Source: Gammaproteobacteria bacterium
GTDB taxonomy: Bacteria; Pseudomonadota; Gammaproteobacteria; SZUA-229
DNA length: 64,000 nucleotides
Assembly: GCA_029287435.1 (NCBI GenBank)
Contig: JARFRD010000022.1
Coordinates: 433 to 64,432 of the forward strand
Direction: 5' to 3'
In this document: in pieces, positions 6,547-63,961 of the stretch
How positions within the stretch are numbered: position 1 is the first letter of the stretch
How the letters are laid out: each line of letters opens with the position of its first letter
Made by a program: the position numbers and the translations under genes
Notes under the pieces: model-generated
What the model saw: only the letters and a program-made list of their open reading frames with translations
Database searches by the model: none
Told to the model about the DNA's origin: nothing

Positions 6547-6597
6547 AAAGGGGTCGGAGTGATATAATTTTAATCACTCCGACCTATTTTTTTGGGC
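6547..6597. repeat. family-B hairpin repeat
   Basis: AAAGGGGTCGGAGTGATATAATTTTAATCACTCCGACCTATTTTTTT. The 12-bp stem is GGTCGGAGTGAT/ATCACTCCGACC. Confidence 0.9.
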
Positions 6598-9472: not shown

Positions 9473-10183
9473 ATGGATGAAACCAAACAGAGAATCGCAT
9501 TATTTATAGACGCTGATAATGCGCCCGCAGGAAAGTTCGAAGATGTACTCAGCGAAGTCGCAAACTATGGTGTGGTGACGATTCGCAAAGCCTATGGTAA
9601 TTGGAAGTCGCCTACACTAAAAGCCTGGGAAGATCTTTTACATGAATATGCTATTCAACCTATACAGCAATATGATTTGACTAAGGGAAAGAATGCTTCC
9701 GATATAGCCATGGTAATCGATGCTATGGACGTAATGTATACAAAACAAATCGATGTAATGTGCTTTGTATCATCTGATAGTGATTTTACGCCAATGGTCA
9801 CTAGAGCTTTAGCTGAAGGCAAGGTTGTATTAGGATTTGGAGAAAGGAAAACACCATTACCATTCGTCAATGCGTGTTCTAAATTTTTATACCTGGACAA
9901 AGAAAAAGAAGAAACTAAAGCAACAGTTAAATCTAAGAACATCAAATCAGATACTAAATTAATACATTTACTGCGTCAGGCAATCGAGGCAACAGAAGAC
10001 GAAAATGGATGGGCGCCACTGGGTCCTGTTGGGTCAAATATCTCTAATAAGACATCATTTGATACCAGAAATTATGGGTTTAAGAATCTAAGCAGCCTAT
10101 TTAAAGCGATAGATTTATTTGAGCTAAAACGTGGGCCTGGGAACTCTTTTTTAGTACGAGATTCTCGTAAGAAGACAGACTGA
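9473..10183 (+). CDS. NYN-domain (LabA/DUF88-like) protein with C-terminal OST-HTH/LOTUS domain
   Basis: RIALFIDADN...KAYGNW...FVSSDSDF motifs. The C-terminal region GWAPLGPVGSNI...FDTRNYGFKNLSSL is LOTUS-like. Start placed at ATG 9473. Confidence 0.75.
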   Translation: MDETKQRIALFIDADNAPAGKFEDVLSEVANYGVVTIRKAYGNWKSPTLKAWEDLLHEYAIQPIQQYDLTKGKNASDIAMVIDAMDVMYTKQIDVMCFVSSDSDFTPMVTRALAEGKVVLGFGERKTPLPFVNACSKFLYLDKEKEETKATVKSKNIKSDTKLIHLLRQAIEATEDENGWAPLGPVGSNISNKTSFDTRNYGFKNLSSLFKAIDLFELKRGPGNSFLVRDSRKKTD

Positions 10184-10304
10184 ACAAGTGGGTCAAGTCA
10201 ACGCATTCCACGGCGCTTCGCTCTGCCCCATGGGTCCGTAGATAACACTCTTCTTCAAACACCGCATGATATCGAACACAATCTGTATCTTGAATTAATA
10301 ATAT

Positions 10305-10323
10305 GGGTCAGAGTACTTGATTA
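10305..10323 (+). repeat. family-A repeat (core only)
   Basis: GGGTCAGAGTACTTGATTA. It abuts and overlaps the stop of the asparaginase-II gene. Confidence 0.75.
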
Positions 10324-11343
10324 ACTAGCATCGCGTCGCGACAACCAGAATGCCGCCGGGCGAATTTCTCCTACTTCAAGCCCCCTTGAGTTGACTATCG
10401 TTGGCGCGATATGCGCCTGAAGCTGATGCTTCTCGGCATCGGATAGAGCGCCCAGGTGATCAAGGATTGCCAGCAATGCAACTGAGCGTGCACGACTGCT
10501 GCCGTCTGCAATTTTCACGGCTATTCCCAGGCCCTCTCCAGGCAAGGCCGCGGTGACGATGCCCTCGGCGCCGGTTTTGGCCAGCACAGAACCCCTGGTG
10601 ACTTCGTTCAACTCGCTGACCACGCTTCCAGGCCCGGCAATATAGAGCGGCTCATTGCTTATGGCCCGGTGAAGACGGTAAATGGCCTGCGCACGCTCAT
10701 CTGGCAAACCCTCAGGCCTGGCAAAGCGGGCCATGGCGCGTCCAAGCTGTACCAGCGGCATGGTCGGTGCAGGTAATCCGCAACCGTCAATCCCCATTGG
10801 GTACTGCTTGAGGTCAATACCCGCCAGTTCGGAAAGTATCTCCAGCGATAACTGCTGCAATGGGTGCTCCAGCAGGTGGTATTTATCGAGTGGCAAACCC
10901 AGGTGCAGCGCGGTGGTTAAAAAACCGGTGTGCTTGCCCGAGCAGTTGTGATGAATGCGGCAGCCCTGTTGACCGGACGTCAGCAGCTGGTGGGCGCTCT
11001 CGGTATGTTCAGGGAGTACCGCGCCGCAGGCCAGGTGATCCTCGGTCAATCCCAGGCGGTTCAGCCAGGACTGCACCAGTGCCTGGTGCATGGGCTCTCC
11101 CTGGTGAGACGAACAGGCCAGGGATAATTCAGCATCGCTGAGGGCGTGGCGGTCAGCGGCGCCGCTCTCGACCAGCTGAATCGCCAGCATCGGTTTCAGG
11201 GCAGAGCGGGGGAATATCAGCTTGTTGATGTCTCCCCAGCTTTCCAGAACCGTACCCCTGGAATCACACACGACGGCAGCACCAAAATGCCGGCTTTCTA
11301 CGGTGCCATTACGGGTGACTTCTACCAATAGTTCTAAGGACAT
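10321..11343 (-). CDS. asparaginase-II family protein
   Basis: 340 aa. TRNGTVESRHFGAAVV...RSALKP, typical of the L-asparaginase II (PF06089-like) family. Confidence 0.75.
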   Translation of the reverse strand: MSLELLVEVTRNGTVESRHFGAAVVCDSRGTVLESWGDINKLIFPRSALKPMLAIQLVESGAADRHALSDAELSLACSSHQGEPMHQALVQSWLNRLGLTEDHLACGAVLPEHTESAHQLLTSGQQGCRIHHNCSGKHTGFLTTALHLGLPLDKYHLLEHPLQQLSLEILSELAGIDLKQYPMGIDGCGLPAPTMPLVQLGRAMARFARPEGLPDERAQAIYRLHRAISNEPLYIAGPGSVVSELNEVTRGSVLAKTGAEGIVTAALPGEGLGIAVKIADGSSRARSVALLAILDHLGALSDAEKHQLQAHIAPTIVNSRGLEVGEIRPAAFWLSRRDAS

Positions 11344-11371
11344 GCAACTGGAACTCGTCGAACAGTTTTCT

Positions 11372-12391
11372 TTATACGGTGGATGCTATCTTATCGCCTG
11401 CACCAGGGAAAATATTTGGCGGGACGGTCGAACTTGCCCTGGCAATTCCCCCGGCTAACAGCAGTTCCACCACTTTATCGTACGTCAGGCCATTTGCGAT
11501 CCTGCAGGCTTCCGGGAAATAACTGGAACCATAGGTCATACCGGGTACGAGGTTTGCTTCCATGAAGAAACATTCCCCACTCTTGCTCGTTTTAATATCG
11601 ATACGCCCGAAGTCCCTGGCCCCCAGGGCGTTGAATGCATTGATCGCAAGTGCAGTGATCCTGCTGCTGACCTCATTATCTTCAATCTTTACCAGTTCTT
11701 CCGAGTCATCCTTTTTTGCCTGTGCCCCTAAAATCCGCAGCCCATTGCCTGATAACGGTGCGATAGCTTCAACAGCAGAGACGGTTAATTTCTCATCAGG
11801 TGTTTTGATCACCGCAACGGTGTACTCGCGACCCTCCAGGTATTCTTCTGCCAGAACAGGCTGGTTGAATGCGCTATATAACGATGACAGTTTGCTTTCG
11901 TATTCCGTGAAGCTGGTGACAAATGACTGGTCATCAATGCCGTTGCCATTGGCTGCATCCAGCGGTTTTAAAAACAACGGGAACGGAAAGGGTAAATCAT
12001 TTTCTGTCTTAAACTGGCCGGGAATCGCGATAAAATAATTCGCGGTTCGGATGCCTTTATTTGATAGATGTGTTTTCGCAAGAACCTTGTTGGAATCATA
12101 TTTCAGCACGTTTCTTGATGAGCCGGTGAAATTGATTCCATGTTCGGTAAAATATTCAGATAGCCAGGTGTCGTCCTTGTAGGAAACGGGAATGTACTTT
12201 ACCGCCGGGATAACCAGGTCGGGTTTTCGTTTGACAACTTCATCGAGGTCTTTTTTTGTCTGGCAGATATTCAGTCTGACACTGTGGCCCATGCCCCGGA
12301 CGGCGTCAAAAACACTGTTGCAGGCGGTTAGTGATCCAAATCCACTCTCTTTCAGGGCTTCATTGGGGGTGGTGATGATTTCTATGTTCAT
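11372..12391 (-). CDS. ATP-grasp enzyme of the D-alanine--D-alanine ligase family
   Basis: ATP-grasp motifs (FLKP..., EEYLEGREYTV, FFMEANLVPGM). Start moved to ATG 12391 (MNIEIITT). Confidence 0.65.
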   Translation of the reverse strand: MNIEIITTPNEALKESGFGSLTACNSVFDAVRGMGHSVRLNICQTKKDLDEVVKRKPDLVIPAVKYIPVSYKDDTWLSEYFTEHGINFTGSSRNVLKYDSNKVLAKTHLSNKGIRTANYFIAIPGQFKTENDLPFPFPLFLKPLDAANGNGIDDQSFVTSFTEYESKLSSLYSAFNQPVLAEEYLEGREYTVAVIKTPDEKLTVSAVEAIAPLSGNGLRILGAQAKKDDSEELVKIEDNEVSSRITALAINAFNALGARDFGRIDIKTSKSGECFFMEANLVPGMTYGSSYFPEACRIANGLTYDKVVELLLAGGIARASSTVPPNIFPGAGDKIASTV

Positions 12392-12682
12392 TAGGGGGTT
12401 CCGACGAGAAAACAATGGCGTTGAATGAACAACAATAAGCCAGGCATTGAAATTCAGAAACGCATGACAGGTGACTGGACGCGAACAGTACATCGGGTCC
12501 ATGAACTACTGTGTATCGATGAAAAGATAGAAATTTTTCTGTGATCAGCAGGCAGTAGATGCCTGGCAAAATTAGATGAGCAAATGGAAAACGCCGCCCT
12601 GATATGCCGACTTGACCAGATTATCATATTTCAGCGGTAAATGATGGCTTTATTACCGAAACAGGCAAGCAAAAAAGGCAAT

Positions 12683-16868: not shown

Positions 16869-18223
16869 TGAATTCACTGCAACTGAGGTTGGTGGCTGGC
16901 CTCGTGGTCAGCCTGCTGGCCCTGTTTGCGCTGCTCGCGCTGCTGGCCGCTCCGGCGATCCGCAACCTAGCTGAAAACAACATGGCGAGCCGCCTGCAGC
17001 ATGACAGTGAAACACTGCTCGCGCTACTGCAGGTCAGCGGGGATGGTGATATCAAACTCGACCGGAGTGCGGTATCACAGGTCTACACTCGTCCTTATTC
17101 CGGGCATTATTTCCAGATACAAAGCGACGTAAAGCAGATCACTTCACGTTCATTATGGGATTCCCGGCTGTCGGTGCCAGGGCAGGTGCAGGCGTCTGAC
17201 GTGCTGCATGCAACAGGACCCCTGGACCAACCACTGCTGATGGCGGTGCACGATTACCGTAAAAACAGTATACCGGTGCAAGTAATCGTTGCTGAGGATC
17301 TCACCGCACTGGAGTCGGACATTCAGCAATTCAAACAGCGATTTGCACTGATTGCCGGCATGCTGCTGATCATCCTGGTGGTTATCCAGGTGCTGATTAT
17401 TCGTGGCGGTCTGCAGCCACTGAAGCGGCTGCGCCAGGAGCTGCGGCAGCTCGAGTCAGGTGAACTGGTGCGGCTGTCAGAAAAGGCGCCAGCGGAAATC
17501 CAGCCGATGATCCTGGAGATTAATCGGCTGATTGATGTCCTCGGCAAGCGTTTGCAGAGGTCACGCAATGCCCTCGGTGATCTTGCGCATGCATTGAAAA
17601 GGCCATTGACGGTATTGACCCGGCTGAGCGAGGAGACGGAAGTAGAAAAAGTGCCCGGACTGCAGAACAGCCTGCAGCGGCAGCTGCAATCAATGCGCAC
17701 GACCACTGACCATATTCTCAAGCGTGCACGGCTCGCCGGGGAGAGCCCGGTTGGTCCGGGATATGATGTGGTATCCGAGATCAATTCCCTGGTCGACACG
17801 CTGCAGAAAATGTACCCGCAGAGGAATCGCAAGATTGAAACCGATATTGGCGCAGGACTGCGTAGTCCACTCGACCGCGAGGACTTCCTTGAACTGCTCG
17901 GCAACCTGCTGGATAACGCTTTCAAGTGGGCTACTGGAACGATTCGGCTGGTAGTAAGGGGTGATGATTCCGTACTCAGGATCAGGGTGGAAGATGATGG
18001 GCCCGGTATTGCCGAGGATATGCTCGCCACACTGCGCCGGCGTGGCAGCCGGGCTGATGAGCAGGTCGACGGTCACGGGCTTGGGCTGGCTATCGTCCAT
18101 GACATTACGGATCTATATGGAGGCAGCCTGGAGCTTGGTCGCTCGGAGACTCTCGGCGGCCTGGCCGTAGAGGTCGTTCTCAATATTCATGAGAAGAGGA
18201 TATCAAGTACTCTGACCCCTTGA
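16868..18223 (+). CDS. sensor histidine kinase
   Basis: Two TM helices, a HisKA H-box (LGDLAHALKRPLT) and HATPase motifs (LGNLLDNAFKW, DDGPGI, GHGLGLAI). The last 8 codons and the stop lie in repeat A. Confidence 0.85.
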   Translation: MNSLQLRLVAGLVVSLLALFALLALLAAPAIRNLAENNMASRLQHDSETLLALLQVSGDGDIKLDRSAVSQVYTRPYSGHYFQIQSDVKQITSRSLWDSRLSVPGQVQASDVLHATGPLDQPLLMAVHDYRKNSIPVQVIVAEDLTALESDIQQFKQRFALIAGMLLIILVVIQVLIIRGGLQPLKRLRQELRQLESGELVRLSEKAPAEIQPMILEINRLIDVLGKRLQRSRNALGDLAHALKRPLTVLTRLSEETEVEKVPGLQNSLQRQLQSMRTTTDHILKRARLAGESPVGPGYDVVSEINSLVDTLQKMYPQRNRKIETDIGAGLRSPLDREDFLELLGNLLDNAFKWATGTIRLVVRGDDSVLRIRVEDDGPGIAEDMLATLRRRGSRADEQVDGHGLGLAIVHDITDLYGGSLELGRSETLGGLAVEVVLNIHEKRISSTLTP

Positions 18224-18240
18224 TTCGGACCCCTTGATTC
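18201..18240 (-). repeat. family-A intergenic repeat carrying the stop codons of two convergent genes
   Basis: The plus strand reads ATCAAGTACTCTGACCCCTTGATTCGGACCCCTTGATTC. TGA 18221-18223 ends the kinase gene and TCA 18203-18205 ends the minus-strand gene. Confidence 0.9.
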
Positions 18241-20374
18241 GCCGTAGATCAAGGCAGTAGTCACTAACGGCCTCGTCAGGCGGGTTGACGGCGTCAGGTG
18301 TCTGCTCAGGCGTGATTTCCTCGACCACGAAGCGCTCGGCGATGCGCCTTCGTGTTTCATCAAGATCTTCAGGCAGGCCGTCATAGGGTTCGCCTTCGGG
18401 CTGCCAGTCGTGCAGGGTGCAGCGCAGCCCGTTTCCGCCAGCGGGCGGCAGCAGGTAGAGCACGATTGGTGTTTGCGCGTCGAGTCCCGGGTGCAGGCCC
18501 ACCCAGGGTGTGAATGCTCTATAGCGCAGGCCGGTGATCAACACAGCGCCGCTTTCGTCCCGTTCACAGCGCAGCGGCACACGGTAGTTGCCTGCCAGTA
18601 GTCGCCAGCCATCGAGGTCCGCTTCATGCTCGCCGCAGCTCCGCAGCGTCAGTTGCAGGCGTCGGGTGCTGGCATCGACCAGCCGTGAACCACCTTCCTG
18701 TTCGGCAGCGTCGCCCAGCAGTGGCCAGAATTCTATTGCCAGGTCGACATCGAGGCGACAGCCCGCCAGCTCGGCATCACCGACATGTCGCCAGTTGTCG
18801 GCGCAGAGCCGCCGCGTGATCGGTTCGCCCAGACCGAGGCCGGCGTGTTGCAGATCATCAAATACGGTGTGCAGGTCCTGCAGCAGGTAGAACGGCAGTG
18901 AGAAGCGATCGTGTAGCTGGCTGCCCCATTCGATGAGGTCATGCTGTAGTTCCTGTCGGGACAGCATCACCGCCAGTGCGCGCAGCATCGCGGCGATGGC
19001 AGCCGCTGATTCCGCATCCATTGCCATGCGAAAGGCGCGGAATTCGACCAGGCCGAGACAGCCACGGCCAGGCAGATACGGGTTCCACAGCTTTTCGATG
19101 TTGATCTCGCTGCGATGAGCGTTGCCCGAGGTGTCGACCAGGAAAGGGCTCAGGCTGCGCCAGATGAATTCGGGTGCAGGCGCGGTGGTGGCAGCCAGCT
19201 GCTGCAACGCGACCTGCAGTTCGCTGAAGGATTCGCGCACATTCTCATCGGTACGCGGGGACTGGCTGTGGCTGCCGACGTATACCGGCGCGAACCAGTA
19301 CGATAATGACGGGTGATGATTCTGATACACGATCAGGCGTGACAGCAATTGCGGCGCGACGAAGAACGGACTGTGTTCACTATCGGGACCGCCGAGCGTG
19401 AACTGCCCGCCACCACCACTTTCCGAAATGTCGCCGTTATAGTTCAGGCGGTAGGGCGCCAGACCGCATGACTGCACCACATCGAACAGCTCGCGGCTCA
19501 TGTCGAGGAAGCCACTGATACTGGCGGCCGGCGCTTCATTGATTTCCAGCACTGCCGGGTCTGGCGTCAGCGTCATCCATGCGACGTTTGCATCCACCGG
19601 CGGTGGAAAACCTCGCCATAGCAGGCTGCTGAGTCCGGCGGCGCTGGCGGCGATGGCGACACGCTGCACGAAGTTGGTGAACAGTTCGACATCGGCGAAG
19701 CCCGGCAGCTCGATACAGGGCTGCAGGCTGTTTTCCGGCCCGCTCGCCGCACAGCCGATAGCAACCAGGTAGAGGCCGTCGGCGGCCAGCTCGTCTTCCA
19801 GACCTTCGGGCGGGATCGGCTGCGACTGCACTGGTGCGCGCAACAGGCGCGGCTCCGCCTGCGGGTCAACGCTTGGCTGCTGGGCATCTGCAGTAAACAG
19901 GATGCGCAGGCCCATTTCGGCGTCGGCCTGGAAAGCGGTGGCAGTCAGGCCGTTGCCGTTGAGCTGATCGGCCAGCGACTGCCAGAACGCGGTGATGTGC
20001 TGCTTTTCGCAAGCACATGCCTCGCTCAGCGGATCGGTCGGCAGATTGTCGGCCAGCGAGCGGCCGTCACGACGCCAGTACAGGCCCAGGCTCCAGCGCG
20101 GCTGTGATTCGCCTGCATACTGGCGTCCGAGGGTGCGCAGGATAATGGATCCGGGATGACGGTCGCGCAGTTGCCTGATGATGCGGCAGGCGTAATCCTG
20201 CTTGCTCTCGCCCAGCGCCTCGCTGAGCCATTCGGGCGTTTCGGAGTGTCGATTGGTGAAGGTCGGTTCCGCGCCTATCCAGACATCGATTCCACTGGCG
20301 GCCACGGCTTCATCGTGAGCGCGAATCGCCGCGTCAAAACTGTTATTGTCAGATTCCACGTAGCAAATCCGCAA
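18203..20374 (-). CDS. DUF2126-like (transglutaminase-associated, putative amidoligase-like) protein
   Basis: 723 aa. DVWIGAEPTFTN near the N-terminus matches what I recall of DUF2126. TTG start. No N-terminal transglutaminase domain. Confidence 0.5.
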   Translation of the reverse strand: MRICYVESDNNSFDAAIRAHDEAVAASGIDVWIGAEPTFTNRHSETPEWLSEALGESKQDYACRIIRQLRDRHPGSIILRTLGRQYAGESQPRWSLGLYWRRDGRSLADNLPTDPLSEACACEKQHITAFWQSLADQLNGNGLTATAFQADAEMGLRILFTADAQQPSVDPQAEPRLLRAPVQSQPIPPEGLEDELAADGLYLVAIGCAASGPENSLQPCIELPGFADVELFTNFVQRVAIAASAAGLSSLLWRGFPPPVDANVAWMTLTPDPAVLEINEAPAASISGFLDMSRELFDVVQSCGLAPYRLNYNGDISESGGGGQFTLGGPDSEHSPFFVAPQLLSRLIVYQNHHPSLSYWFAPVYVGSHSQSPRTDENVRESFSELQVALQQLAATTAPAPEFIWRSLSPFLVDTSGNAHRSEINIEKLWNPYLPGRGCLGLVEFRAFRMAMDAESAAAIAAMLRALAVMLSRQELQHDLIEWGSQLHDRFSLPFYLLQDLHTVFDDLQHAGLGLGEPITRRLCADNWRHVGDAELAGCRLDVDLAIEFWPLLGDAAEQEGGSRLVDASTRRLQLTLRSCGEHEADLDGWRLLAGNYRVPLRCERDESGAVLITGLRYRAFTPWVGLHPGLDAQTPIVLYLLPPAGGNGLRCTLHDWQPEGEPYDGLPEDLDETRRRIAERFVVEEITPEQTPDAVNPPDEAVSDYCLDLRRIKGSESRGQST

Positions 20375-20476
20375 GGCTGTCCCAAGTCGTTGACCATTAT
20401 GCCAGTGTTAAGCCGGTTTGCGAAAGTGTTATAGTCGCTGTACAAAACAACCGCTCTTACCCCTGGTATCAGTATT

Positions 20477-21340
20477 ATGCGACGACTTCAGATCCGTCAC
20501 CTGACACGCTACCAGTATGCTGAAACCGTCAAGCTGCTGCCGCATACCCTGCATCTGCGGCCACGCGACGGCCACGACATACGGGTGCAATCCTCGAAGC
20601 TGGATATCAGCCCGGAGTTTCATATCCACTGGAAGCGCGATGTCTATGGCAACTCAGTCGCGCTCGTTGACTTCCTGCAAACTGCAAAAGAACTCACCAT
20701 CGCCAGCGAAGTCATGGTGGAAAACTATGAAGAACAACCACTGGATTTTGTGCTGGAAGATTATGCCCGCTCATTCCCGTTCGACTACGATCCCGGGGAA
20801 CAGATCGACCTCGCACCGTACAAAAGCCCGATCTATGAACAGGACCAGGAAATGGTGAATGAATGGTTGGCAGATCTGTGTAATCCGGCGAACAGGGTCG
20901 ATACCATCACCATGCTGACCACGCTGAATACGAATATCGCCAACGGCCTTCGCTACATGGTGCGTGAAGAACCCGGCGTGCAACCACCGTCGCAGACCCT
21001 GTCATCGGGCACGGGCTCATGCCGGGACTTCGCCACGCTGTTCATCGAAAGCTGTCGTCATTGCGGTCTCGCCAGCCGCTTCATCAGCGGTTACGTGTGC
21101 AATGAAAGCGTGGATCCCTGGAGTACTGCAACCCATGCCTGGGCGGAAGTCTATCTGCCGGGTTCCGGCTGGCGTGGTTTCGATCCGACTAGCGGCCAGT
21201 TGGTCAGCGGCGAGCACATCGCGGTGGCAGTGCATCGTCACCCGGAAGCCATACCACCGGTATCAGGATCATTCGTCGGCACGGGAAATGCGCAGCCAAT
21301 ACTTACCGTGGAGGTCAATGTTGCACCTGTTGCGGAGTAA
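20477..21340 (+). CDS. transglutaminase-family protein
   Basis: Bact_transglu_N-like start (MRRLQIRHLTRYQY) and catalytic core GTGSCRDFA...HAWAEVYLPGSGWRGFDPT. Confidence 0.9.
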   Translation: MRRLQIRHLTRYQYAETVKLLPHTLHLRPRDGHDIRVQSSKLDISPEFHIHWKRDVYGNSVALVDFLQTAKELTIASEVMVENYEEQPLDFVLEDYARSFPFDYDPGEQIDLAPYKSPIYEQDQEMVNEWLADLCNPANRVDTITMLTTLNTNIANGLRYMVREEPGVQPPSQTLSSGTGSCRDFATLFIESCRHCGLASRFISGYVCNESVDPWSTATHAWAEVYLPGSGWRGFDPTSGQLVSGEHIAVAVHRHPEAIPPVSGSFVGTGNAQPILTVEVNVAPVAE

Positions 21341-21461
21341 TAATGAAAGGAAGGCAAACAAAATAAAAAAACCAGCAAAGGCTGGCAGGCCATCGAAGGT
21401 AGGTTAATCAAGGTTAATTGCGGCCTGTCTCTTATAAATCTAACTCTCCGATTCCTTTTAA

Positions 21462-22601
21462 CTAGAGATCCTTAACCGTCTCCTCAATCAGCATATCTAC
21501 GACGGCATGTAATGCCTCTATTGGGGCTTTGCCTGCTGCACAGGCTTGCTCATAGGTTTTGATTTGTTTATGTGCACTGGTACCGTGTTTGGTAATGTCG
21601 AGGGCCTGCTCCAGTTCCTTTTCACAGCCCAGTTGCTCGGCATCGCGATAGACGTTTTCCACGATACTGGACAACCAGTCATTCACCGGTATGATTTTTT
21701 CACTTTCAAGGTCAAGCAGTCCCTCGTCAACACCATAGCGAATGGCGCGCCAGCGGTTTTGGTCAACCAGAAAACGGGAATACACCGGGACGGTTTTGTG
21801 CTCGCGCTTCATACGATAGAGATGATGGAGTATTGATTGCGTCAAGGCGGCAAGGCTGATGGCATCATCGAGGCGGGTGCACATATCGGCAATGCGGCAT
21901 TCCAGTGTGGGGTAGCGCGCGCTGATGCGCATGTCCCACCAGATAAACGTGGGATCCTCTATCACTTCTGCATCTTGCAGAATCGTCATGTGTTGTTGAT
22001 AGTCGGCATAATCCTTGAACTGTTCCGGCAGCCCGGTGCGCGGAAAGTTATCAAACACGGTCAGGCGAAAGGATTTCAGGCCGGTATTCTCGGCTTGCCA
22101 GAACGGTGACGAGGTGCTTAAAGATAACAGCAGCGGCAGAAACTGGCTGAATTGATTGAGCAGTTCAAGCCTGAGTTCATCATCCTCGATACCGACGTGG
22201 ACATGTGTCCCGCAGATCAGCATGCGCCGGGCAATGGTTTGCATATCACGAAACAGGGAGTGATAGCGTTGCTTGTTTGTCGAGCGTTGTGCATGCCATT
22301 CTGCAAAGGGATGGGTAGAGGCGGCGATCGGTGCAATGTTGTATTGACGGCTGACGTCATGGGCAAGTTTGCGTAACTGGGCCAGTTCCTGGCGTGCTTC
22401 GGCGACCGTTTCACATACCCGTGTTTCCGTTTCGATCTGCGAGCGCAGTAACTCGTGATCCACCGCTCCATGTTCCGCCCGCTTGGCGCATTGCTCGAAG
22501 ATTTCCCGTGGCGGATCATTGACCACATCACGCGTGTCACGATCGACCAGCAGGTATTCTTCCTCGATGCCGAGAGTGAATGTTGGCTCAGGCGCTGTCA
22601 T
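21462..22601 (-). CDS. carboxylate-amine ligase (GCS2 / YbdK family)
   Basis: FTLGIEEEYLLVD start motif. Start set to ATG 22601, which overlaps the upstream stop (ATGA). Confidence 0.85.
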   Translation of the reverse strand: MTAPEPTFTLGIEEEYLLVDRDTRDVVNDPPREIFEQCAKRAEHGAVDHELLRSQIETETRVCETVAEARQELAQLRKLAHDVSRQYNIAPIAASTHPFAEWHAQRSTNKQRYHSLFRDMQTIARRMLICGTHVHVGIEDDELRLELLNQFSQFLPLLLSLSTSSPFWQAENTGLKSFRLTVFDNFPRTGLPEQFKDYADYQQHMTILQDAEVIEDPTFIWWDMRISARYPTLECRIADMCTRLDDAISLAALTQSILHHLYRMKREHKTVPVYSRFLVDQNRWRAIRYGVDEGLLDLESEKIIPVNDWLSSIVENVYRDAEQLGCEKELEQALDITKHGTSAHKQIKTYEQACAAGKAPIEALHAVVDMLIEETVKDL

Positions 22602-23434
22602 ACGGCATCCCACACCCGGTACAAATCCGGCTCGGCCAGGATCTCGGTCAATGCCTCGGCCAGGATGGTGGCCCATTTTTCTGCCCCTTCCTCGCTATTG
22701 ACCAGGTCCTGGCGCACCTCGATCGAGATATGCGGCAGGCCGGCTGCCTCGGCATGATGATCGATGGTGTAATCGGCAGGATGCTTGCCTGAATACGGTT
22801 CGTTGTCGCCGACATTGATGTCTTCAGGATGGGCGCGTAAGCGCTGCAGCAACGGCAGTGGAATGCGGGGATCCTTGTCCCACAACAGGCCAATATGCCA
22901 GGGACGTTCAAATCCGGCCATCTGCGGGGTGAAGCTGTGTATGGCAATCAGCGCCGGGACGATGCCACGCTGACGAAAACCCTGCAGCGCATGATCGATC
23001 GCCGCGCGGTACGGGGTATAAAAGGAATGGATGCGCCGATTACGATCCTCCGCGGATAAACCCTGGTTGCCGGGAATCGGGATATTGTCACTGACCTCCG
23101 GCATTACGCTCGGGTCCTCGAGACTGCGATTGAGATCGATCACCAGGCGCGAATAAGCCGCCATCACCGCCGGGGCATCGAGATGATCAACCAGGTGGGT
23201 CAGCAGTTTACGGGTGCCGATGTCGTAGGCGACATGTTGCTGCAGCACCCAGTCCTCCAGCCCCAGCTGCTCAAGTGACCGGGGAATGCGATTGCTGACA
23301 TGATCGCCGACCAGCAGGACCTTCGCCTGCCCCTGCTCATTCAGGGTACTGAAGGCAGCTGGTTCATCAGCGGCGATGAGGCTTTCAAGCTCGTGCTGTG
23401 GGTCTGATGTAGATGTCATCTTGCTGTGCGCCAT
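22598..23434 (-). CDS. N-formylglutamate amidohydrolase-family protein
   Basis: 278 aa. LLVGDHVSNRIP...AIHSFTP motifs of the FGase family. Confidence 0.7.
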   Translation of the reverse strand: MAHSKMTSTSDPQHELESLIAADEPAAFSTLNEQGQAKVLLVGDHVSNRIPRSLEQLGLEDWVLQQHVAYDIGTRKLLTHLVDHLDAPAVMAAYSRLVIDLNRSLEDPSVMPEVSDNIPIPGNQGLSAEDRNRRIHSFYTPYRAAIDHALQGFRQRGIVPALIAIHSFTPQMAGFERPWHIGLLWDKDPRIPLPLLQRLRAHPEDINVGDNEPYSGKHPADYTIDHHAEAAGLPHISIEVRQDLVNSEEGAEKWATILAEALTEILAEPDLYRVWDAV

Positions 23435-28417: not shown

Positions 28418-28444
28418 AAAGAGTCGGAGTGATTTAATTTTTTG
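28418..28444. repeat. family-B repeat, left arm only
   Basis: AAAGAGTCGGAGTGATTTAATTTTTTG. Confidence 0.7.
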
Positions 28445-28462
28445 CAAAACTATAACAATACG

Positions 28463-29107
28463 ATGACTATGAAACTTGTACAAAAAAGCCTTCTAGAAGG
28501 CACGAGGGAATACGAAATCATCGATGATGATACCTTATCGGTACGGATAAAGCGGCTGTTAAAAGAAGAGAAACTGACTGTCAGCCTGTCCATGCTTAAT
28601 CCTGAGCCGGTGCTGAATGGTTCAGAGCTGGAGTTTTATAGTGACTATAAAGGGCGTCCGATTCTTTCACTGTTATTAAATAAACCGAATGCAGCAGAAT
28701 TTGACACTTTTATCGATACATTGAAGAAAAAAATAATCGGCGAGGACGATATTCTTACCAGTGTTGATGATGATTCCCAAGATACTAAAGTGTCTGAAGC
28801 ACTGGCCAGGAATGTCTATGAGGAACCACCGTTGTTCTTCGAGGATTCTGCCGATAGGCGAGATATAACGAGCGTTCTGCCGGTTAATGCAGAAAGGCTA
28901 AGTGATGACATCAGCATGCTGAAAACCTATCTGGAAGAGGAGGACATCAGGCCCCTGATCGATTCTCTTGAAACACTTAAAGCGGGACCTGATAATGAAG
29001 CGGCCTATCAGAAAATGCTGGATGCCTACGACGTTCTGGGCATCAAACAAGGCGCTGTATTGACCTATGCGCCTTATCTCAAGGTTCTGCTATCTAAATC
29101 CATGTAA
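28463..29107 (+). CDS. hypothetical protein with a C-terminal module shared with the 35744-36016 gene
   Basis: The track ORF starts at a TTG inside repeat B, so I use ATG 28463. The C-terminal 66 aa are 32/66 identical (hand alignment) to the 90-aa protein in the MoxR cluster. Confidence 0.55.
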   Translation: MTMKLVQKSLLEGTREYEIIDDDTLSVRIKRLLKEEKLTVSLSMLNPEPVLNGSELEFYSDYKGRPILSLLLNKPNAAEFDTFIDTLKKKIIGEDDILTSVDDDSQDTKVSEALARNVYEEPPLFFEDSADRRDITSVLPVNAERLSDDISMLKTYLEEEDIRPLIDSLETLKAGPDNEAAYQKMLDAYDVLGIKQGAVLTYAPYLKVLLSKSM

Positions 29108-34490: not shown

Positions 34491-34596
34491 AATCGCATTC
34501 CCTGGTATGTAGCGTGAGAATAATTAGCATAGCAGTCGCATGTCAACAATAATCAAGAATCAGCAACAAACCACATTTTTTACACCCGTATACGAT

Positions 34597-34657
34597 AAAA
34601 GGGGTTGAGGGATCAAGGTGGCGGAGTGATATGACATTAATCACTCCAACCTCTTTT
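34597..34657. repeat. composite repeat: A-type head fused to a family-B hairpin
   Basis: AAAAGGGGTTGAGGGATCAAGGTGGCGGAGTGATATGACATTAATCACTCCAACC. Confidence 0.75.
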
Positions 34658-34788
34658 CTTTTTTTGATTTCATCTTGCTCATCCCCGCTTCAGTTGCCCT
34701 GCAAATTATGGGCACCCCTTAATTGGTAGTGATGCGACGACGAACTAATGATAATCGATGTGAGTTTCAGCCAGGATATGCTTTGCGG

Positions 34789-35685
34789 CTACAGGTAAAG
34801 GATTCCGTCTCTGCGCTTCTGGATCGATGGCTCATTTTCCGTTGAGCCTCTAAGTCGTGCTTCCACGCGCATAGCATTCATTAGTTTCTTATCCGCTACA
34901 TATGGATATAAAGGATAGAATCTCTGCACTTCAAGAACGTTGGGTTTTGCTGCCAGCTCAAGACGCCTTCGATCCTCATGTGACAGCCAATGCAGCATCA
35001 GCAGGCGTGGTGCCTGTCTTGCTAAATAACGTTGACACAACTGATACTGAGACTCTTCCTGCCAGTCTTCCCTTACCAACAAGGCGGGAAAACTTTCAGT
35101 TTCATGGCTACGACGCGTGAACCAGCGGGCACGTGGATTATAACCAGCCCGTTTGGCGACCAACTTTTCCAGCTGGTAATTGACCGGGGGGGTACCTCGC
35201 TCTTTCTCGTCTTCCGTAGTGTCAACAGGAAGGACTGCAGCCGGCAGGGCCGTCCACTCCGGGCGCTCTGGAAATGATGCCATCTGCTCCGCTTCCGTAC
35301 AGGAGAAAATCAGCGCCAGCGGCGACTGGTCTTCTTTATCGAGTAGCCAGTATTCATAGATATCTGCAGCAGGGAATGGCAGGCTTGCCTGTGTGAGGAA
35401 ATGGATCAGTTCCATTATGCGGTCATCAATTTCTTCACTTTCTAATGTTGATTGCTGCGCAATCGTCTGCAGTTGACTGTGGTTGACCACGGCGGCCCGT
35501 CTGAAGCTGTGCTGAGGTCTGTAGCCGTAGTAGTTTTCTCGCCCACTGATGGCATGAAGAAAATGTATCTCCCAGGTTTCACAGTCCATGGATACGGCGC
35601 GGGCGCGTTCTGACTCGGCAATCTGTATCTGGCCGGAGTACGGGGGAGTTAGACGCTGTGAGTAGGCTCTAATCTTGCTTGTCAT
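34789..35685 (-). CDS. hypothetical protein (last gene of the MoxR-VWA cluster)
   Basis: 298 aa counted from ATG 35685. No family recognised. Confidence 0.55.
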   Translation of the reverse strand: MTSKIRAYSQRLTPPYSGQIQIAESERARAVSMDCETWEIHFLHAISGRENYYGYRPQHSFRRAAVVNHSQLQTIAQQSTLESEEIDDRIMELIHFLTQASLPFPAADIYEYWLLDKEDQSPLALIFSCTEAEQMASFPERPEWTALPAAVLPVDTTEDEKERGTPPVNYQLEKLVAKRAGYNPRARWFTRRSHETESFPALLVREDWQEESQYQLCQRYLARQAPRLLMLHWLSHEDRRRLELAAKPNVLEVQRFYPLYPYVADKKLMNAMRVEARLRGSTENEPSIQKRRDGILYL

Positions 35686-35743
35686 TGTAACTGGAATCCA
35701 ATATTGCTGTGTTTGCAGGAAAGTCGAAGAAAAAAATAGATAC

Positions 35744-36016
35744 TCAATGCTTGTTCCGCGTGTCGTTAGTATACGGGTCATCTGAGATCAGGACTATCAG
35801 GTAGGGCGCGTATGTCAGCACGGCGCCCTGGGCGATACCAGGATTATTGAAAGCCTCATTAGTATCTGCAAGACGTGGAGCACTATCAGGATCTTCCTTT
35901 AGTGCTTCCAGTGCCGAGATCAAGGGCTCGATTTCAGCACCATCCAGGTATGTTCTTAACTGTTGTATAGAGGAGGTAATCCCTTCAGTATCTATTTTTT
36001 TTTGAAGACTGGTCAT
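35744..36016 (-). CDS. hypothetical 90-aa protein with conserved GI-QGAVLTYAPYL-VL-S module
   Basis: ORF in the MoxR-VWA cluster. Paralogous to the C-terminus of the 28463-29107 product. Confidence 0.6.
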   Translation of the reverse strand: MTSLQKKIDTEGITSSIQQLRTYLDGAEIEPLISALEALKEDPDSAPRLADTNEAFNNPGIAQGAVLTYAPYLIVLISDDPYTNDTRNKH

Positions 36017-36140
36017 TATCTGTATGCTGTTTATATCTGTATTTCAAACATGGATGAAGCGGATTGCTATGTTTGTAGACAAGGTGGATAGTGTTCTCAA
36101 TATTTTCTCTGCGTTCAATGTAATGGTCGTTGATGTTTTC

Positions 36141-37457
36141 TCAATTCAGTTGCACGCGTTGACCAAATGGTACTGTTGCCTGGCCCTTGACCAGCCACAG
36201 TACGGGATACATCGGTTCTGCCTGGGGAAATATGCCCCTGGCATCAGTGAAGTATACTAACAGGTCGGGGGCGCGGTCCTGGTTTTCGATCCATTCAAAC
36301 GGCGGCCTGAAGTTGGTGCCACCGCCGCCATGTATTTCAATATCCCGGGAGAATTCATCCCATGGCTCGAAATACCACGGGCAGCCGTGATTAAGCTCCG
36401 AGTCGCAGGTTAGTAATGTGATGCGTGCCCTTACATGGCCCTTGATCGCATCGATTTCGGACATGAACTCTCCGATCTCTTCCTCTGATATCGAGCCGCT
36501 GGTATCAATTACCACCAGGACGTTGGTTTCGGAACTGCGCAGGCTTGGGTAGACGGCCGGGTTACCGCGTCGTGATGATGGCCTGGAATAACTGTAATCA
36601 TCACGTGCGGTCATCGCCATATAGCGTTGTAGCAGCATGCGCCAGGGCAGCCGTGGCTGCAGCAGAAAATCAACCAGGCGTGCCATCTCGCCTTCCAGCT
36701 GGCCCCTCTGGTGAGCAGTCTGCGCGGCTGCGGCCAGGCGTTGTTGCCACTGCGTATTGAGATCTTCCAGTTGCTGTGCTGACATCGGCTGCGGTTCTGC
36801 TGCGGCACCAGCGCCGCTGCCCCCCCCGTTTTCATTCTGCTCGTTGCCTTGCCCCTGTGAATGGTCTTCCTGCTCGTTGCCTTGTCCCTGTGAGCCGTCA
36901 TCCTGCTCGCGTTCCCTGTTAGGTTCATCGTTACCAGCATCACTATGATTCTCGCTGTCGCGGTCATCGTTGTTGTCACTACCACTGTTTTGTTCGTTGT
37001 CGTCTGTATCGCTGTCATGTTCCTGGTCCTCATCTTCATCATCGAGGCAGGGATAGATTTCCTCCGCCGTCATGCCCTCGTATTCTTTCAGGTAAATGGC
37101 ACCCGGCGTCGGTTTGAGACCATCATTGATCAGCATTGGATTAACCGCATAGTCGCAGGCAAGATCCCATCGTGTCTTGATACGGTGCCCCCTGCGATAG
37201 AAATGTGATAGTGCACAATGCAGCGCTTCATGTGAAAGTGCGAATTGTGTCTGGTCGAGGTCAAGCGTGGCGATGTACTCGGCATTGTAATAAAATGTCC
37301 TGCCATCGCTGAATGTCGTCTTACACCATGACGGGTCACCCTCCGTCATTGGAAGCCGCAGCACCAGGGCGCCGAGAAACGGCTTGTCAAGTATCAGGCG
37401 TGTGCGGGCTGAAACGAGTTTGTGTTCTATATCTTGTTTGTTTTCTATATCTTGCAT
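36141..37457 (-). CDS. metallopeptidase-like (HExxH) + VWA-like domain protein (DUF2201-type), with acidic low-complexity insert
   Basis: HEALHCALSH motif in the N-domain. The C-terminal VVIDTSGSIS is a MIDAS-like DxSxS. The ~100-aa D/E/N/Q/G-rich linker contains a duplicated SQGQGNEQ. Confidence 0.75.
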   Translation of the reverse strand: MQDIENKQDIEHKLVSARTRLILDKPFLGALVLRLPMTEGDPSWCKTTFSDGRTFYYNAEYIATLDLDQTQFALSHEALHCALSHFYRRGHRIKTRWDLACDYAVNPMLINDGLKPTPGAIYLKEYEGMTAEEIYPCLDDEDEDQEHDSDTDDNEQNSGSDNNDDRDSENHSDAGNDEPNREREQDDGSQGQGNEQEDHSQGQGNEQNENGGGSGAGAAAEPQPMSAQQLEDLNTQWQQRLAAAAQTAHQRGQLEGEMARLVDFLLQPRLPWRMLLQRYMAMTARDDYSYSRPSSRRGNPAVYPSLRSSETNVLVVIDTSGSISEEEIGEFMSEIDAIKGHVRARITLLTCDSELNHGCPWYFEPWDEFSRDIEIHGGGGTNFRPPFEWIENQDRAPDLLVYFTDARGIFPQAEPMYPVLWLVKGQATVPFGQRVQLN

Positions 37458-37475
37458 TTACGCGCCACTGGATGT

Positions 37476-38522
37476 TCAAGATAACATGACATCCGCAATC
37501 TTGTCGGCCCAGTCTGCGAATTCAGGTACGGCGAAGATATCCTCGCCTACCGCTCTATGCATATCGGACACCATCATTACACCCATGTCGCGTTGCGGGA
37601 ACTTGCTGGCATAGCCGAGTATATTACCGTGGATTTTTACTGCTTCGCCATTGGCGCTGTCCTTTGCGCGAATGGCGCGGGCAACGAGGGCTGAAGCGAC
37701 AGCGTATTGCAGATCGAGCTCCGCCGGTGCCGGAACGTCTTCGCCACTGACGATGGCATCCAGGTCAGGCATCTGGTGCAGGCTCTCGACGAAGGCATTC
37801 AGTTCCACACCAGCGGCTTTGCCGACACATGCCTGCAGGGAGTTGACCAGCAAATCAGGATTGTCATCGAATTTTTGCAACGCCCGATGAGCGAACTCCC
37901 AGGAGCGTGGTGATGGAAATGCAACGGGGTTGTATGATGGATCGAAGTCGAACACGAGGTCCGGACGGAAGCGCAGGAAGCCGATGACACGTTCATCGAT
38001 GCCATTTGCATAGGCCCAGGCCACCCAGTCGTCGAGGTTCACATCGACCTCGTAATGCGAAAAGCGGTTCGCCAGTGGTGCCGGCATGGTATAGGTGACA
38101 CCCCGATCACCCTGGCGATTCCCTGCAGCGATAATTGCCCATTGATTGGGCACTTCGTATTCACCGAGCCTGCGATCCAGAATCAGTTGGTAGGCGGCAG
38201 CGGAAACACTCGGCGGTGCCGAGGTGATTTCGTCCAGGAACAGAATGCCTTTAGTCCCATGGCGTTTTACATCGGGCAGCATCGCCGGAACAGCCCAATC
38301 GACAATTTCATCTTTCAGGAAGGGGATGCCGCGCAGGTCGCTGGGCTCCATCTGTGACAGGCGGATGTCGATTAGTGGTGCCTCGTGACGTGCTGCAACT
38401 TGTGCAACCATCTGCGATTTCCCGACACCCGGAGGGCCCCATAACATGACCGGCGTGTGGTGGCCATGCTGAGTACTCTGGAATTCTTTCTCTATAACGG
38501 TGAGTAATTGTAGCGGGCGCAT
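37476..38522 (-). CDS. MoxR-type AAA+ ATPase (AAA_5-like)
   Basis: Walker A GPPGVGKS, Walker B ILFLDE, and a sensor/arginine-finger region AAGNRQGDRG. Only 18 nt upstream of the VWA gene. Confidence 0.85.
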   Translation of the reverse strand: MRPLQLLTVIEKEFQSTQHGHHTPVMLWGPPGVGKSQMVAQVAARHEAPLIDIRLSQMEPSDLRGIPFLKDEIVDWAVPAMLPDVKRHGTKGILFLDEITSAPPSVSAAAYQLILDRRLGEYEVPNQWAIIAAGNRQGDRGVTYTMPAPLANRFSHYEVDVNLDDWVAWAYANGIDERVIGFLRFRPDLVFDFDPSYNPVAFPSPRSWEFAHRALQKFDDNPDLLVNSLQACVGKAAGVELNAFVESLHQMPDLDAIVSGEDVPAPAELDLQYAVASALVARAIRAKDSANGEAVKIHGNILGYASKFPQRDMGVMMVSDMHRAVGEDIFAVPEFADWADKIADVMLS

Positions 38523-38822
38523 AGAACCTTTCCTAATTAGTGGTTTAAAGCAAACTCCAGATAATTAGTTGGAACTGTTCGATACAGTTGCTTCACTTTC
38601 CGGCCGCTCCCCATTGAGCGATTGATAACACCCGTGGTGAACCTGCTTAGCTCCTTATCCCATCATGTGAAGCGATAATTTTTTGGAGTGTATATAGTTA
38701 TTCTTATCTTGGCATCATTTTGCAGCTTAATACACCTCGGCATCGCATGGGTAACCAGCTGCGGTGGCGGGTAGCCCCGGTTTGTGGTGATGCGGGTGGA
38801 ATGCCCGGCTATACTTTCAATG

Positions 38823-39590
38823 CTAGTGGGGAGGTTTGCTCGCCCACTTTTCTGCATGCCGGTTCATCACCGCGCTGACAGCTTCGGGTACGTTCTGCAC
38901 AGCCATCTGCCTTTTGCCGTCGGCAAAGAAGCCAGGCATGTCATACGGCAGGCGCCGGCCCAGTTTCTCGAAAGTGCGCTCCATCAGCTCCGGATCCAGC
39001 GAGCGGGTCGCTGCAATGCCTGAATTAAGGTTGATGACGCGCCACGGGCGCCATGTATCACTCCTGTCCTCGTCCATTTGCAATTTCTCGGATGCTGCTT
39101 CAATGACTTCATCCATGATCTGGCATGCCTCGGCGAGATCCTGCGGTTCGCTCAGTCCGTTTACAATCATGCCGAAACCATCAGCTGCGCCTGCAAGGTT
39201 GTCGATGATCGCATCATGGCGCGCGAGCCACACTGCCAGTGACGGGAGTACACGCGAAACGTTATCCCTTTGATCCATGATCTCAAGCTTGCGCACCAGA
39301 AAATCGAGCCTGTCCAGCAGGTCGAGACCGTAAGAACCGAATTCGGTCAAATCATCTGAGTCCATATAGCACTCATCAGATTCCAGTGCAGCGGTGATCT
39401 GAAAAAAGTCGGACAGGGCGGAAGCCAGGGCGAGTGGGCCAGAATCGTCACCCATGATTTTTTGCGCTTCCGTCTCCCGGGCCAGTACTGCCTGCATGAT
39501 CTCCAGTGCCAATTGGGAAATGGCATCTATTTCAATTACGAGCTTGTTCATAGGCTGTGAAGTATATCTGAGTTGGAGCACATGAGACAT
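38823..39590 (-). CDS. hypothetical helical protein (first gene of the MoxR-VWA cluster)
   Basis: 255-aa ORF with no family recognised. Start ambiguous (ATG 39590 or 39551). No clear SD. Confidence 0.5.
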   Translation of the reverse strand: MSHVLQLRYTSQPMNKLVIEIDAISQLALEIMQAVLARETEAQKIMGDDSGPLALASALSDFFQITAALESDECYMDSDDLTEFGSYGLDLLDRLDFLVRKLEIMDQRDNVSRVLPSLAVWLARHDAIIDNLAGAADGFGMIVNGLSEPQDLAEACQIMDEVIEAASEKLQMDEDRSDTWRPWRVINLNSGIAATRSLDPELMERTFEKLGRRLPYDMPGFFADGKRQMAVQNVPEAVSAVMNRHAEKWASKPPH

Positions 39591-39733: not shown

Positions 39734-39859
39734 ATGATTAGTGTAATCAAATCTAGCGCTAAAGACACAGAAGATCGTTTTGTCGGTATGGCTCTCTTTT
39801 CATTCCTCACAGCCCCACTGTTTCTACTGACAATTGCGGCTGGGATCAGTGCGCTTTAA
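39734..39859 (+). CDS. unannotated 41-aa single-pass membrane peptide, paralogue of the 3616-3738 ORF
   Basis: Translation is MISVIKSSAKDTEDRFVGMALFSFLTAPLFLLTIAAGISAL. AGGAGA lies 7 nt before the ATG. Shares the pattern ED-x2-V-x3-L-x2-FLT-x-PLF-x-L-x2-AAG with the other peptide. Confidence 0.45.
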   Translation: MISVIKSSAKDTEDRFVGMALFSFLTAPLFLLTIAAGISAL

Positions 39860-39937: not shown

Positions 39938-40014
39938 AGGGGGTCAGACCCCGGTTTGCCCCTCAGTTAAATCACACCGACCCTTGTTGAATTAAATTAC
40001 TTCGACCCCTTAAA
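39938..40014. repeat. stacked repeat fragments (C-type palindromic core plus two B-type right arms)
   Basis: AGGGGGTCAGACCCCGGTTT, then TTAAATCACACCGACCCTT, then AATTAAATTACTTCGACCCCTTAAA. Confidence 0.7.
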
Positions 40015-63916: not shown

Positions 63917-63961
63917 TTAAAGGGGTCGGAGTGATTTAATTTTTAGCAGCCGCCCTTTAAG
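63917..63961. repeat. family-B repeat (left arm intact, right arm diverged)
   Basis: TTAAAGGGGTCGGAGTGATTTAATTTTTAGCAGCCGCCCTTTAAG. Confidence 0.8.

Follow-up and report, generated by a model that had tools for sequence, protein, structure and literature searches.

A block of five genes was analyzed in a 64,000-nt stretch of DNA (hereafter the window; positions 433 to 64,432 of contig JARFRD010000022.1, GenBank assembly GCA_029287435.1) from a gammaproteobacterium of the SZUA-229 lineage. An initial annotation, made from the sequence alone, had put the block forward as a candidate for an uncharacterized multi-component system in which a MoxR-type AAA+ ATPase and a metallopeptidase carrying a von Willebrand factor A (VWA) domain were joined by three unassignable genes, here called A, B and C. 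The five open reading frames (ORFs) were all found on the minus strand at the coordinates given for them, arranged head to tail. The idea of a dedicated five-gene system did not hold: the locus is a composite, in which a two-gene remodeling module stands among genes of the type that accompanies the adenosine 5'-phosphosulfate (APS) reductase genes (apr), and A, B and C do not belong specifically with the pair. The features of the block are as follows.

38823..39551 (ORF open to 39590), minus strand: gene A, soluble acidic all-alpha protein, likely 242 aa
38523..38822, minus strand: spacer or leader between A and the ATPase gene, 300 nt, conserved
37476..38522, minus strand: AAA348, MoxR-class AAA+ ATPase, 348 aa
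38415-38438, minus strand: Walker A of AAA348, GPPGVGKS, aa 29-36
38229-38246, minus strand: Walker B of AAA348, ILFLDE, aa 93-98
36141..37457, minus strand: VWA438, zincin-like peptidase plus VWA, 438 aa
37203-37232, minus strand: HExxHxxxxH motif of VWA438, HEALHCALSH, aa 76-85
36786-37043, minus strand: acidic linker of VWA438, aa 139-224, about 86 aa
36832..36897, minus strand: tandem repeat of VWA438, in-frame, 33 nt, 11-aa unit SQGxGNEQEDH, two copies
36492-36506, minus strand: metal-ion-dependent adhesion site (MIDAS) of VWA438, DTSGS, aa 318-322
35744..36016, minus strand: gene B (B90), 90-aa acidic protein, standalone F209 C-terminal domain
34789..35685 (readable back to 35781), minus strand: gene C, 298-aa soluble alpha/beta protein of an unnamed family

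Successive genes are separated by 300 nt (A to ATPase), 18 nt (ATPase to VWA, as originally counted), 124 nt (VWA to B) and 58 nt (B to C), and the GC content of 45-58% across the block is like that of its surroundings. The Walker A, Walker B, HEALH and DTSGS motifs lie where they had been placed, and the 298 aa proposed for C (start at 35685) agree with homologues of about 295 aa. Two descriptions needed adjustment. Gene A does have an ORF of 255 aa, but its product is likely shorter, starting at Met14 (39551) and comprising 242 aa, because most A homologues measure 242-244 aa. Likewise, the D/E/N/Q/G-rich insert of VWA438 is real but spans about 86 rather than about 100 aa, and the duplicated SQGQGNEQ reported within it is part of an 11-aa/33-nt tandem repeat.

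The core of the block is a MoxR-class AAA+/zincin-VWA (DUF2201) pair. This assignment, already made by the initial annotation, is borne out by matches above the Pfam gathering scores for both proteins. AAA348 matched AAA_5 with 44.8 bits (cutoff 22; E = 1.6e-11) over residues 24-154, and matched phrog_1297 over its full length (E = 3e-95). Its nearest solved structures are Midasin, NorQ (E = 3.9e-06) and, distantly, CbbQ (E = 3.4e-04). The Pfam CbbQ_C domain was not matched and AAA348 is 348 aa long versus about 270 aa, which places it outside the CbbQ/NorQ/GvpN subfamily. VWA438 matched DUF2201_N (PF13203; 156.1 bits, E = 1.8e-45, residues 11-297), DUF2201 (PF09967; 89.9 bits, E = 1.8e-25, residues 314-437) and, over its full length, phrog_1314 (E = 1.6e-88). 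Among 13 diverse family members, H76 and E77 of the HExxH motif are kept in at least 90%, H80 and H85 are invariant, and so are the MIDAS residues D318, S320, S322, T347 and D405. By likeness to its MoxR relatives AAA348 would work as a hexameric remodeler, and the zincin domain of VWA438 may cut a client.

VWA438 has more than 5377 relatives among the matches listed, and a sequence search found no solved structure for the family. In the searchable literature we found no published function for any DUF2201/COG3864/APE2220 member, and DUF2201 is mentioned only in passing, in line with the earlier remark that the role of this peptidase-VWA subgroup is not established. Relatives of the pair in phages (mostly N4-like) and on plasmids are less than 40% identical, on which ground a phage or plasmid origin of the pair was rejected. 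The acidic linker (83% D/E/N/Q/G/S in VWA438) is found family-wide and is variable. Its 33-nt unit occurs two to six times among VWA proteins more than 90% identical (438, 449, 471 and 482 aa), and behaves like a variable-number tandem repeat in a flexible linker.

Searches of A, B and C against Pfam, NCBIfam, PADLOC and PHROGs returned no match. The three genes remain without a named family, as first noted, but they can be placed, each belonging to a conserved family housed at apr loci. C has 1218 homologues, and its family falls into 620 representative clusters at 50% identity, whose members all have a single domain and a length of about 290-330 aa; an exhaustive profile search recovered no domain fusion, no Pfam model was found for remote members, and the C profile returned nothing from PDB sequences. 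The AlphaFold2 model of C (pLDDT 78.6, pTM 0.76) has an alpha/beta fold for which Foldseek found nothing in PDB or BFVD at E < 0.03 (query-normalized TM score < 0.2). A has 418 homologues, with identity still at 64-68% at rank 120, and its model (pLDDT 91.2, pTM 0.87) consists of 12 helices and is helical-repeat-like. The top Foldseek hits of A in PDB were designed repeat proteins and tetratricopeptide repeat (TPR) adaptors, at E ≥ 0.018 and TM score ≤ 0.34, and neither the A profile nor F209 matched a PDB sequence. Structure prediction with Foldseek, one of the checks recommended at the outset, has given confident models of A and C without a significant structural relative in PDB.

B90 is 48% identical to the C-terminal part of a protein of about 210 aa encoded at 9709-10338 of locus L001 (loci compared with the window carry L numbers). 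Standalone B-type ORFs of 84-110 aa adjoin C in Chromatiaceae and in Thiobacillus/Hydrogenophilales, and B90 therefore represents a genuine gene type. All three unnamed proteins, A, B and C, are acidic and soluble and contain little Cys, which makes Fe-S clusters unlikely. The window also holds a paralogue of B90.

28442..29107, plus strand: F209 paralogue of B90, about 212 aa, full length

This gene lies 5.7 kb from C, joins an N-terminal domain to the B domain and belongs to the same accessory set. Aligned with L001_209 over the full length, its product shows 41% identity; identity to B90 is 44.6%, and no Pfam family was found for it.

The genomic surroundings of these families show that A, B and C are apr-locus accessory genes in sulfur-oxidizing Gamma- and Betaproteobacteria. 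In the first neighborhoods obtained for diverged C and A homologues, an aprB/aprA pair was present (aprB with Fer4 and APS-reductase_C domains, aprA with FAD_binding_2 and Succ_DH_flav_C) and the ATPase/VWA pair was absent. A pattern scan for C with one genome per species found relatives in 205 species. The best 80 loci were analyzed, and their content was scored by tblastn with a panel of locus genes; 42 of the 80 were fully flanked, C having 8 kb or more to either side. Both aprB and aprA were present in 37 of the 42 fully flanked loci, at a median distance of 2.3 kb, and the aprM-like, aprB and aprA neighbors of C are genes of dissimilatory APS reductase. A was found in 24 of the 80 C-centered loci and lay within 1 kb of C in 13, all of these without the ATPase/VWA pair. 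B or F209 was present in 51 of the 80, within 1 kb of C in 43. Where a taxon was named, the surveyed loci came from sulfur oxidizers of the genera Thiocapsa, Halochromatium, Lamprobacter, Thiohalocapsa, Thiogranum and Thiobacillus and of the groups Thiohalobacteraceae, Ectothiorhodospiraceae, Thioalkalispiraceae, Granulosicoccaceae and Hydrogenophilales. Linkage of C to apr extends over Chromatiaceae, Ectothiorhodospiraceae, Thiohalobacteraceae, Granulosicoccaceae and Hydrogenophilales, with gene orders that vary.

The accessory set around aprM-aprBA comprises s116, s179, x369, a HIT protein, the YCII-like s108, s106, s53, F209/F209N, A and C, and was seen at L001 2389-10754, at L007 9001-16248 and in survey loci L013-L088. 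Its member s179 is a SlyD-like FKBP chaperone (E = 5e-16), x369 is a TPR protein, and M282, with five transmembrane segments, is AprM-like. Judged from their sequences, the accessory genes other than A, B and C appear to be of assembly or chaperone character. A search of the accessible literature for this set, including the combination of aprBA with SlyD, found no description. Beside canonical aprMBA, a second AprB/AprA-like pair, diverged to 37-47% identity with the main AprBA, adjoins A or C in Chromatiaceae-type and unclassified gammaproteobacterial metagenome-assembled genomes (MAGs); it was seen upstream of A/C in L015, L043, L046, L053, L057, L058 and L065, and at L009 1-944.

Turning to the ATPase/VWA pair, we found AAA, VWA and C contiguous in the window and in seven related loci, with a VWA-C gap usually of 25-28 nt. 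Close relatives (VWA 74-93% identical) have the order A-AAA-VWA-C-x142 (DUF4124), and among them only the window and L095 carry B between VWA and C. Flanks in the window lineage show indels and rearrangements while the block itself is intact, and the general neighborhood is common to relatives, which argues that the block is not mobile. A metagenome scan with VWA438 as sole query gave only five close loci, and the breadth of the comparison comes from a protein search with contig look-ups. In L103, AAA, VWA and C again stand in a row, without A (ATPase 86%, VWA 67%, C 63% identity), between unrelated flanks that encode a two-component system, a PDZ/haem-binding protein and an M1 peptidase. In L079, a Granulosicoccaceae MAG, the order on a single strand is AAA-VWA-aprM-aprB-aprA-s116-s179-x369-C-s53.

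A different MoxR ATPase, of the CbbQ type (AAA_5 plus CbbQ_C, 270 aa, 88-92% identical), adjoins the apr/C cluster in another clade, at 11 loci (L025, L026, L030, L031, L034, L037, L038, L044, L047, L048 and L060). It is also present at L001 989-1801 (minus strand), with no VWA gene beside it. In L038 this ATPase lies at the opposite end of the apr/C cluster, so that the linkage survives rearrangement.

Taken together, these results lead us to favor, tentatively and at a little under an even chance, the reading that a MoxR/VWA remodeler has been co-opted to act on APS-reductase accessory proteins. We favor it because the pair is a bona fide module with conserved catalytic motifs; because C, A and B/F209 each have their own link to aprM-aprBA; because AAA-VWA-C recurs in two unrelated flanking contexts; because the pair heads the apr cluster in L079; because 11 loci have a different MoxR ATPase, of the CbbQ type, at the border of the apr/C cluster; and because flanks vary by indels around an intact block. 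In the window lineage the pair lies between A, B and C and is probably expressed together with them, and their adjacency is probably not mere chance.

The mechanism that we envisage is modeled on NorQ/NorD, CbbQ/CbbO and CoxD/CoxE. The VWA MIDAS site would dock on an acidic residue of the client, the ATPase hexamer would pull or twist the adaptor so that the client is remodeled, and the zincin domain may clip the client. The most likely client would be protein C, with A and B as companions, and through these three proteins the target may be an APS-reductase-related assembly. What the sequences show is the gene content, the motifs, the family memberships, the apr linkage of A, B and C and the recurrence of AAA-VWA-C; co-transcription, any physical contact between the proteins, the choice of client, cleavage by the zincin domain and an effect on APS reductase are inferred. 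The pair together with C, A and B might even constitute a new maturation or activase system that serves dissimilatory APS reductase (AprBA-AprM) in sulfur-oxidizing bacteria, a counterpart of CbbQO, NorQD and CoxDE; we consider this unlikely. C, A and B would then be new, structurally novel components of the sulfite-to-sulfate branch of sulfur oxidation.

Known MoxR/VWA systems offer partial parallels. NorQ/NorD is a MoxR AAA+/VWA chaperone for the insertion of FeB into cytochrome c nitric oxide reductase (PMC9976466, PMC13036017). As with NorQ and NorD, the AAA_5 ATPase gene of the window adjoins that of its VWA partner, and in L079 the module lies beside enzyme genes as NorQ/NorD lies beside those of its client; NorD differs in being without a zincin-like N-domain, and NorQ in being about 80 aa shorter than AAA348. 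CbbQ/CbbO, the Rubisco activase, is a MoxR ATPase with a VWA adaptor whose MIDAS engages the client, encoded beside the client enzyme in chemoautotrophs (PMC4660213). A true CbbQ-type ATPase adjoins the apr/C cluster in the 11 loci named above, whereas AAA348 shows no more than a distant relationship to CbbQ. CbbO, for its part, is a far larger VWA protein that is not known to carry an HExxH motif. RavA/ViaA, which act on Frd and Nuo (PMC10585395, PMC3893208), and CoxD/CoxE, which act on CO dehydrogenase as cited in PMC7159879, are likewise MoxR/VWA pairs acting on respiratory or redox enzyme complexes, but they belong to different subfamilies and are without the zincin domain, and the client link of the window pair is one of gene neighborhood only. 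The closest likeness in domains is to the DUF2201_N/DUF2201 plus AAA_5 family, including phrog_1297 and phrog_1314 of N4-like phages, which has the same domains over the full length in the same pairing. Unlike its phage and plasmid members, the window pair is chromosomal and embedded among apr-linked accessory genes.

Several observations weigh against co-option. The ATPase/VWA pair occurs within 10 kb in only 2 of the 80 C loci, and in none of the 42 that are fully flanked, so that it is not generally needed beside apr. MoxR-type ATPases of either kind are missing from the vicinity of most apr/C loci by a wide margin. Homologues of aprA, aprB, the aprM-like gene, s116, s179 and s53 are absent from the whole 64-kb window. 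The family of the pair is huge and appears as a bare pair or a single gene in N4-like phages and on plasmids. In another clade (L097-L100 and L102; ATPase 81-86% and VWA 63-70% identical to those of the window) the order is a Sel1-like 150-aa gene, AAA, VWA, a 370-aa gene and a 180-aa gene, and these conserved neighbors have no homology to A, B or C detectable by BLAST or hhalign. Orthologous pairs with differing neighbors point to a conserved two-gene core with lineage-specific neighbors. Finally, every juxtaposition is limited to one clade, and shared ancestry therefore inflates the counts.

Two side observations concern this other clade. The Sel1-like 150-aa and 370-aa families were considered as remote homologues of A and C and rejected, all hhalign probabilities being below 1%. 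A 127-aa PDDEXK_3 gene stands between ATPase and VWA at L097 9558-9941 and L102 7565-7948, and the pair thus tolerates a gene between its two members.

The main rival to co-option is a fortuitous insertion between A and C: an autonomous, general-purpose pair would have landed there by accident, with A, B and C serving APS reductase and having no functional tie to it. In many genomes A directly adjoins C and the pair is missing (the gaps are 102-119 nt in L062, L063 and L070, for instance), which makes insertion between them the parsimonious history. The scarcity of the pair at C loci, the unrelated neighbors of orthologous pairs elsewhere and the presence of the family in phages and on plasmids all fit an accident. 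Against it speak the recurrence of AAA-VWA-C in L103, where the flanks are unrelated and A is absent, the separate juxtaposition with an apr cluster in L079, and the common strand and tight spacing of the genes; moreover, in genomes of several Mb, a size that we assume, chance would hardly bring about two or three independent landings next to one and the same gene set of 10-15 kb. We consider an accidental landing a possible but less than likely account. The initial annotation had proposed that the adjacency be called fortuitous if homologues of its three unknowns were never next to the pair in other genomes. What we found comes near to that, A, B and C being mostly without the pair; it is partly rescued by the AAA-VWA-C order kept through the lineage and in L103, by L079, where the pair heads a C-containing apr cluster, and by the linkage of A and B to C elsewhere.

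A self-contained five-gene system without a tie to sulfur, with A, B and C as adaptors or substrates particular to the lineage and synteny with apr incidental, seems to us doubtful. The other clade also has five genes, with a helical Sel1-like gene upstream and two unknowns downstream, which suggests that the pair habitually recruits flanking partners. The helical-repeat-like shape predicted for A is typical of adaptors, and the window itself contains no apr genes. On the other side, linkage of C to apr holds across families and varied gene orders, which is too broad for incidental synteny, and A, B and C occur far more often without the pair than with it.

An anti-phage or conflict system, or a phage or mobile-element remnant, is poorly supported and very improbable: the strong PHROG matches of both core genes, the weak, P-loop-level PADLOC matches of the ATPase (IetA, 5e-05; DolB, 8.5e-05) and the place of MoxR-vWA pairs at the core of conflict systems with VMAP, iSTAND, FtsH and beta-propeller components, sometimes with a peptidase domain fused to the vWA protein (Kaur et al. 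2020, PMC7159879), are set against PADLOC results that are blank for VWA438, A, B and C, a bpMoxR score of 19.9 bits for AAA348 that stays below the cutoff of 27, phage and plasmid relatives under 40% identity, a neighborhood stable across relatives, an unremarkable composition, and annotated ORFs around the cluster that are ordinary chromosomal genes with no integrase or phage gene among them. The block resembles those conflict systems in having a MoxR-vWA core with further linked genes, and differs in containing no VMAP, iSTAND, FtsH or beta-propeller third component and in occurring in sulfur-oxidizer taxa rather than in multicellular bacteria.

The spacer between A and the ATPase gene (38523-38822) is as conserved as coding sequence. 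Its mean column identity with L010 and L092 is 80%, near-invariant blocks precede the ATPase start, and the invariant blocks include a 7-bp stem, GCTTCAC/GTGAAGC. A structured RNA was rejected for now: Rfam gave no match in the spacer, the folding z-score of -0.55 marks no unusual stability, and a few compensatory pairs were seen among three sequences, which are too few for covariation. The spacer may be a promoter, an operator or a leader.

Repeat elements had been thought to bracket the cluster. We found only a dispersed 20-nt motif and a hairpin, neither of them like the end of a mobile element, and a repeat-bracketed island was therefore rejected. The hairpin lies downstream of C.

34622..34657, unstranded: hairpin downstream of C, T-run on the plus strand

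Its arms are GGAGTGAT...ATCACTCC, and a second copy at 6555-6590 is 86% identical; it is possibly a bidirectional terminator or an element like repetitive extragenic palindromes (REP). A promoter-like site at 34524-34553 (plus strand) precedes the hairpin by about 70 nt, and the intergenic region has no plus-strand gene; site and hairpin together (34524-34670) could represent a small transcript or a bidirectional terminator. The 20-nt motif, AAATTAYNNNSACCCCTTAA, occurs at 34703-34722, 39994-40013 and 63918-63937, three copies versus 0.03 expected, and may be a short REP-like intergenic element. The divergent 41-codon ORF facing the cluster (39734-39859, plus strand) is real and conserved, with one predicted transmembrane segment and 80% identity in L010. 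There it lies by LON_substr_bdg/ABM genes, about 7.4 kb from A, and because it is unlinked in that locus it was rejected as a component of the cluster.

Elsewhere in the window, a gene of the MbnB/TglH/ChrH family (E = 1.3e-111) and a DUF2063 gene overlap at 4199-5888 (minus strand), a pairing typical of peptide modification of the kind seen for ribosomally synthesized and post-translationally modified peptides (RiPPs) or of DUF692/DUF2063 systems. At 18203-22676 (minus strand), about 1.1 kb separates a putative amidoligase gene of the DUF2126 family (723 aa) from a gene of the GCS2 glutamate-cysteine-ligase family (404 aa), and D-Ala-D-Ala-ligase-like and asparaginase II genes lie at 10321-12502; the genes of these two regions may form a peptide-ligase cluster.

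Sulfite oxidation by way of APS reductase is one of the major routes of sulfur cycling in marine and sediment settings, and to our knowledge its known components in sulfur oxidizers are essentially Sat, AprBA and AprM or Qmo. The chief interest of our analysis lies in the apr-linked set of accessory genes and in a possible connection of this set with MoxR. A recurrent, unnamed set of proteins tied to aprMBA has come to light, in which C is present in at least 205 species, A and C have confidently predicted models without a structural relative in PDB, and MoxR-type ATPases are juxtaposed with the set three separate times. Should the link not be functional, three genes previously held to be unassignable would still be placed in a defined gene neighborhood. 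If it is functional, it would provide a first client for the very large, uncharacterized DUF2201 zincin-VWA family and would supply a textbook pathway with further factors for assembly or regulation.

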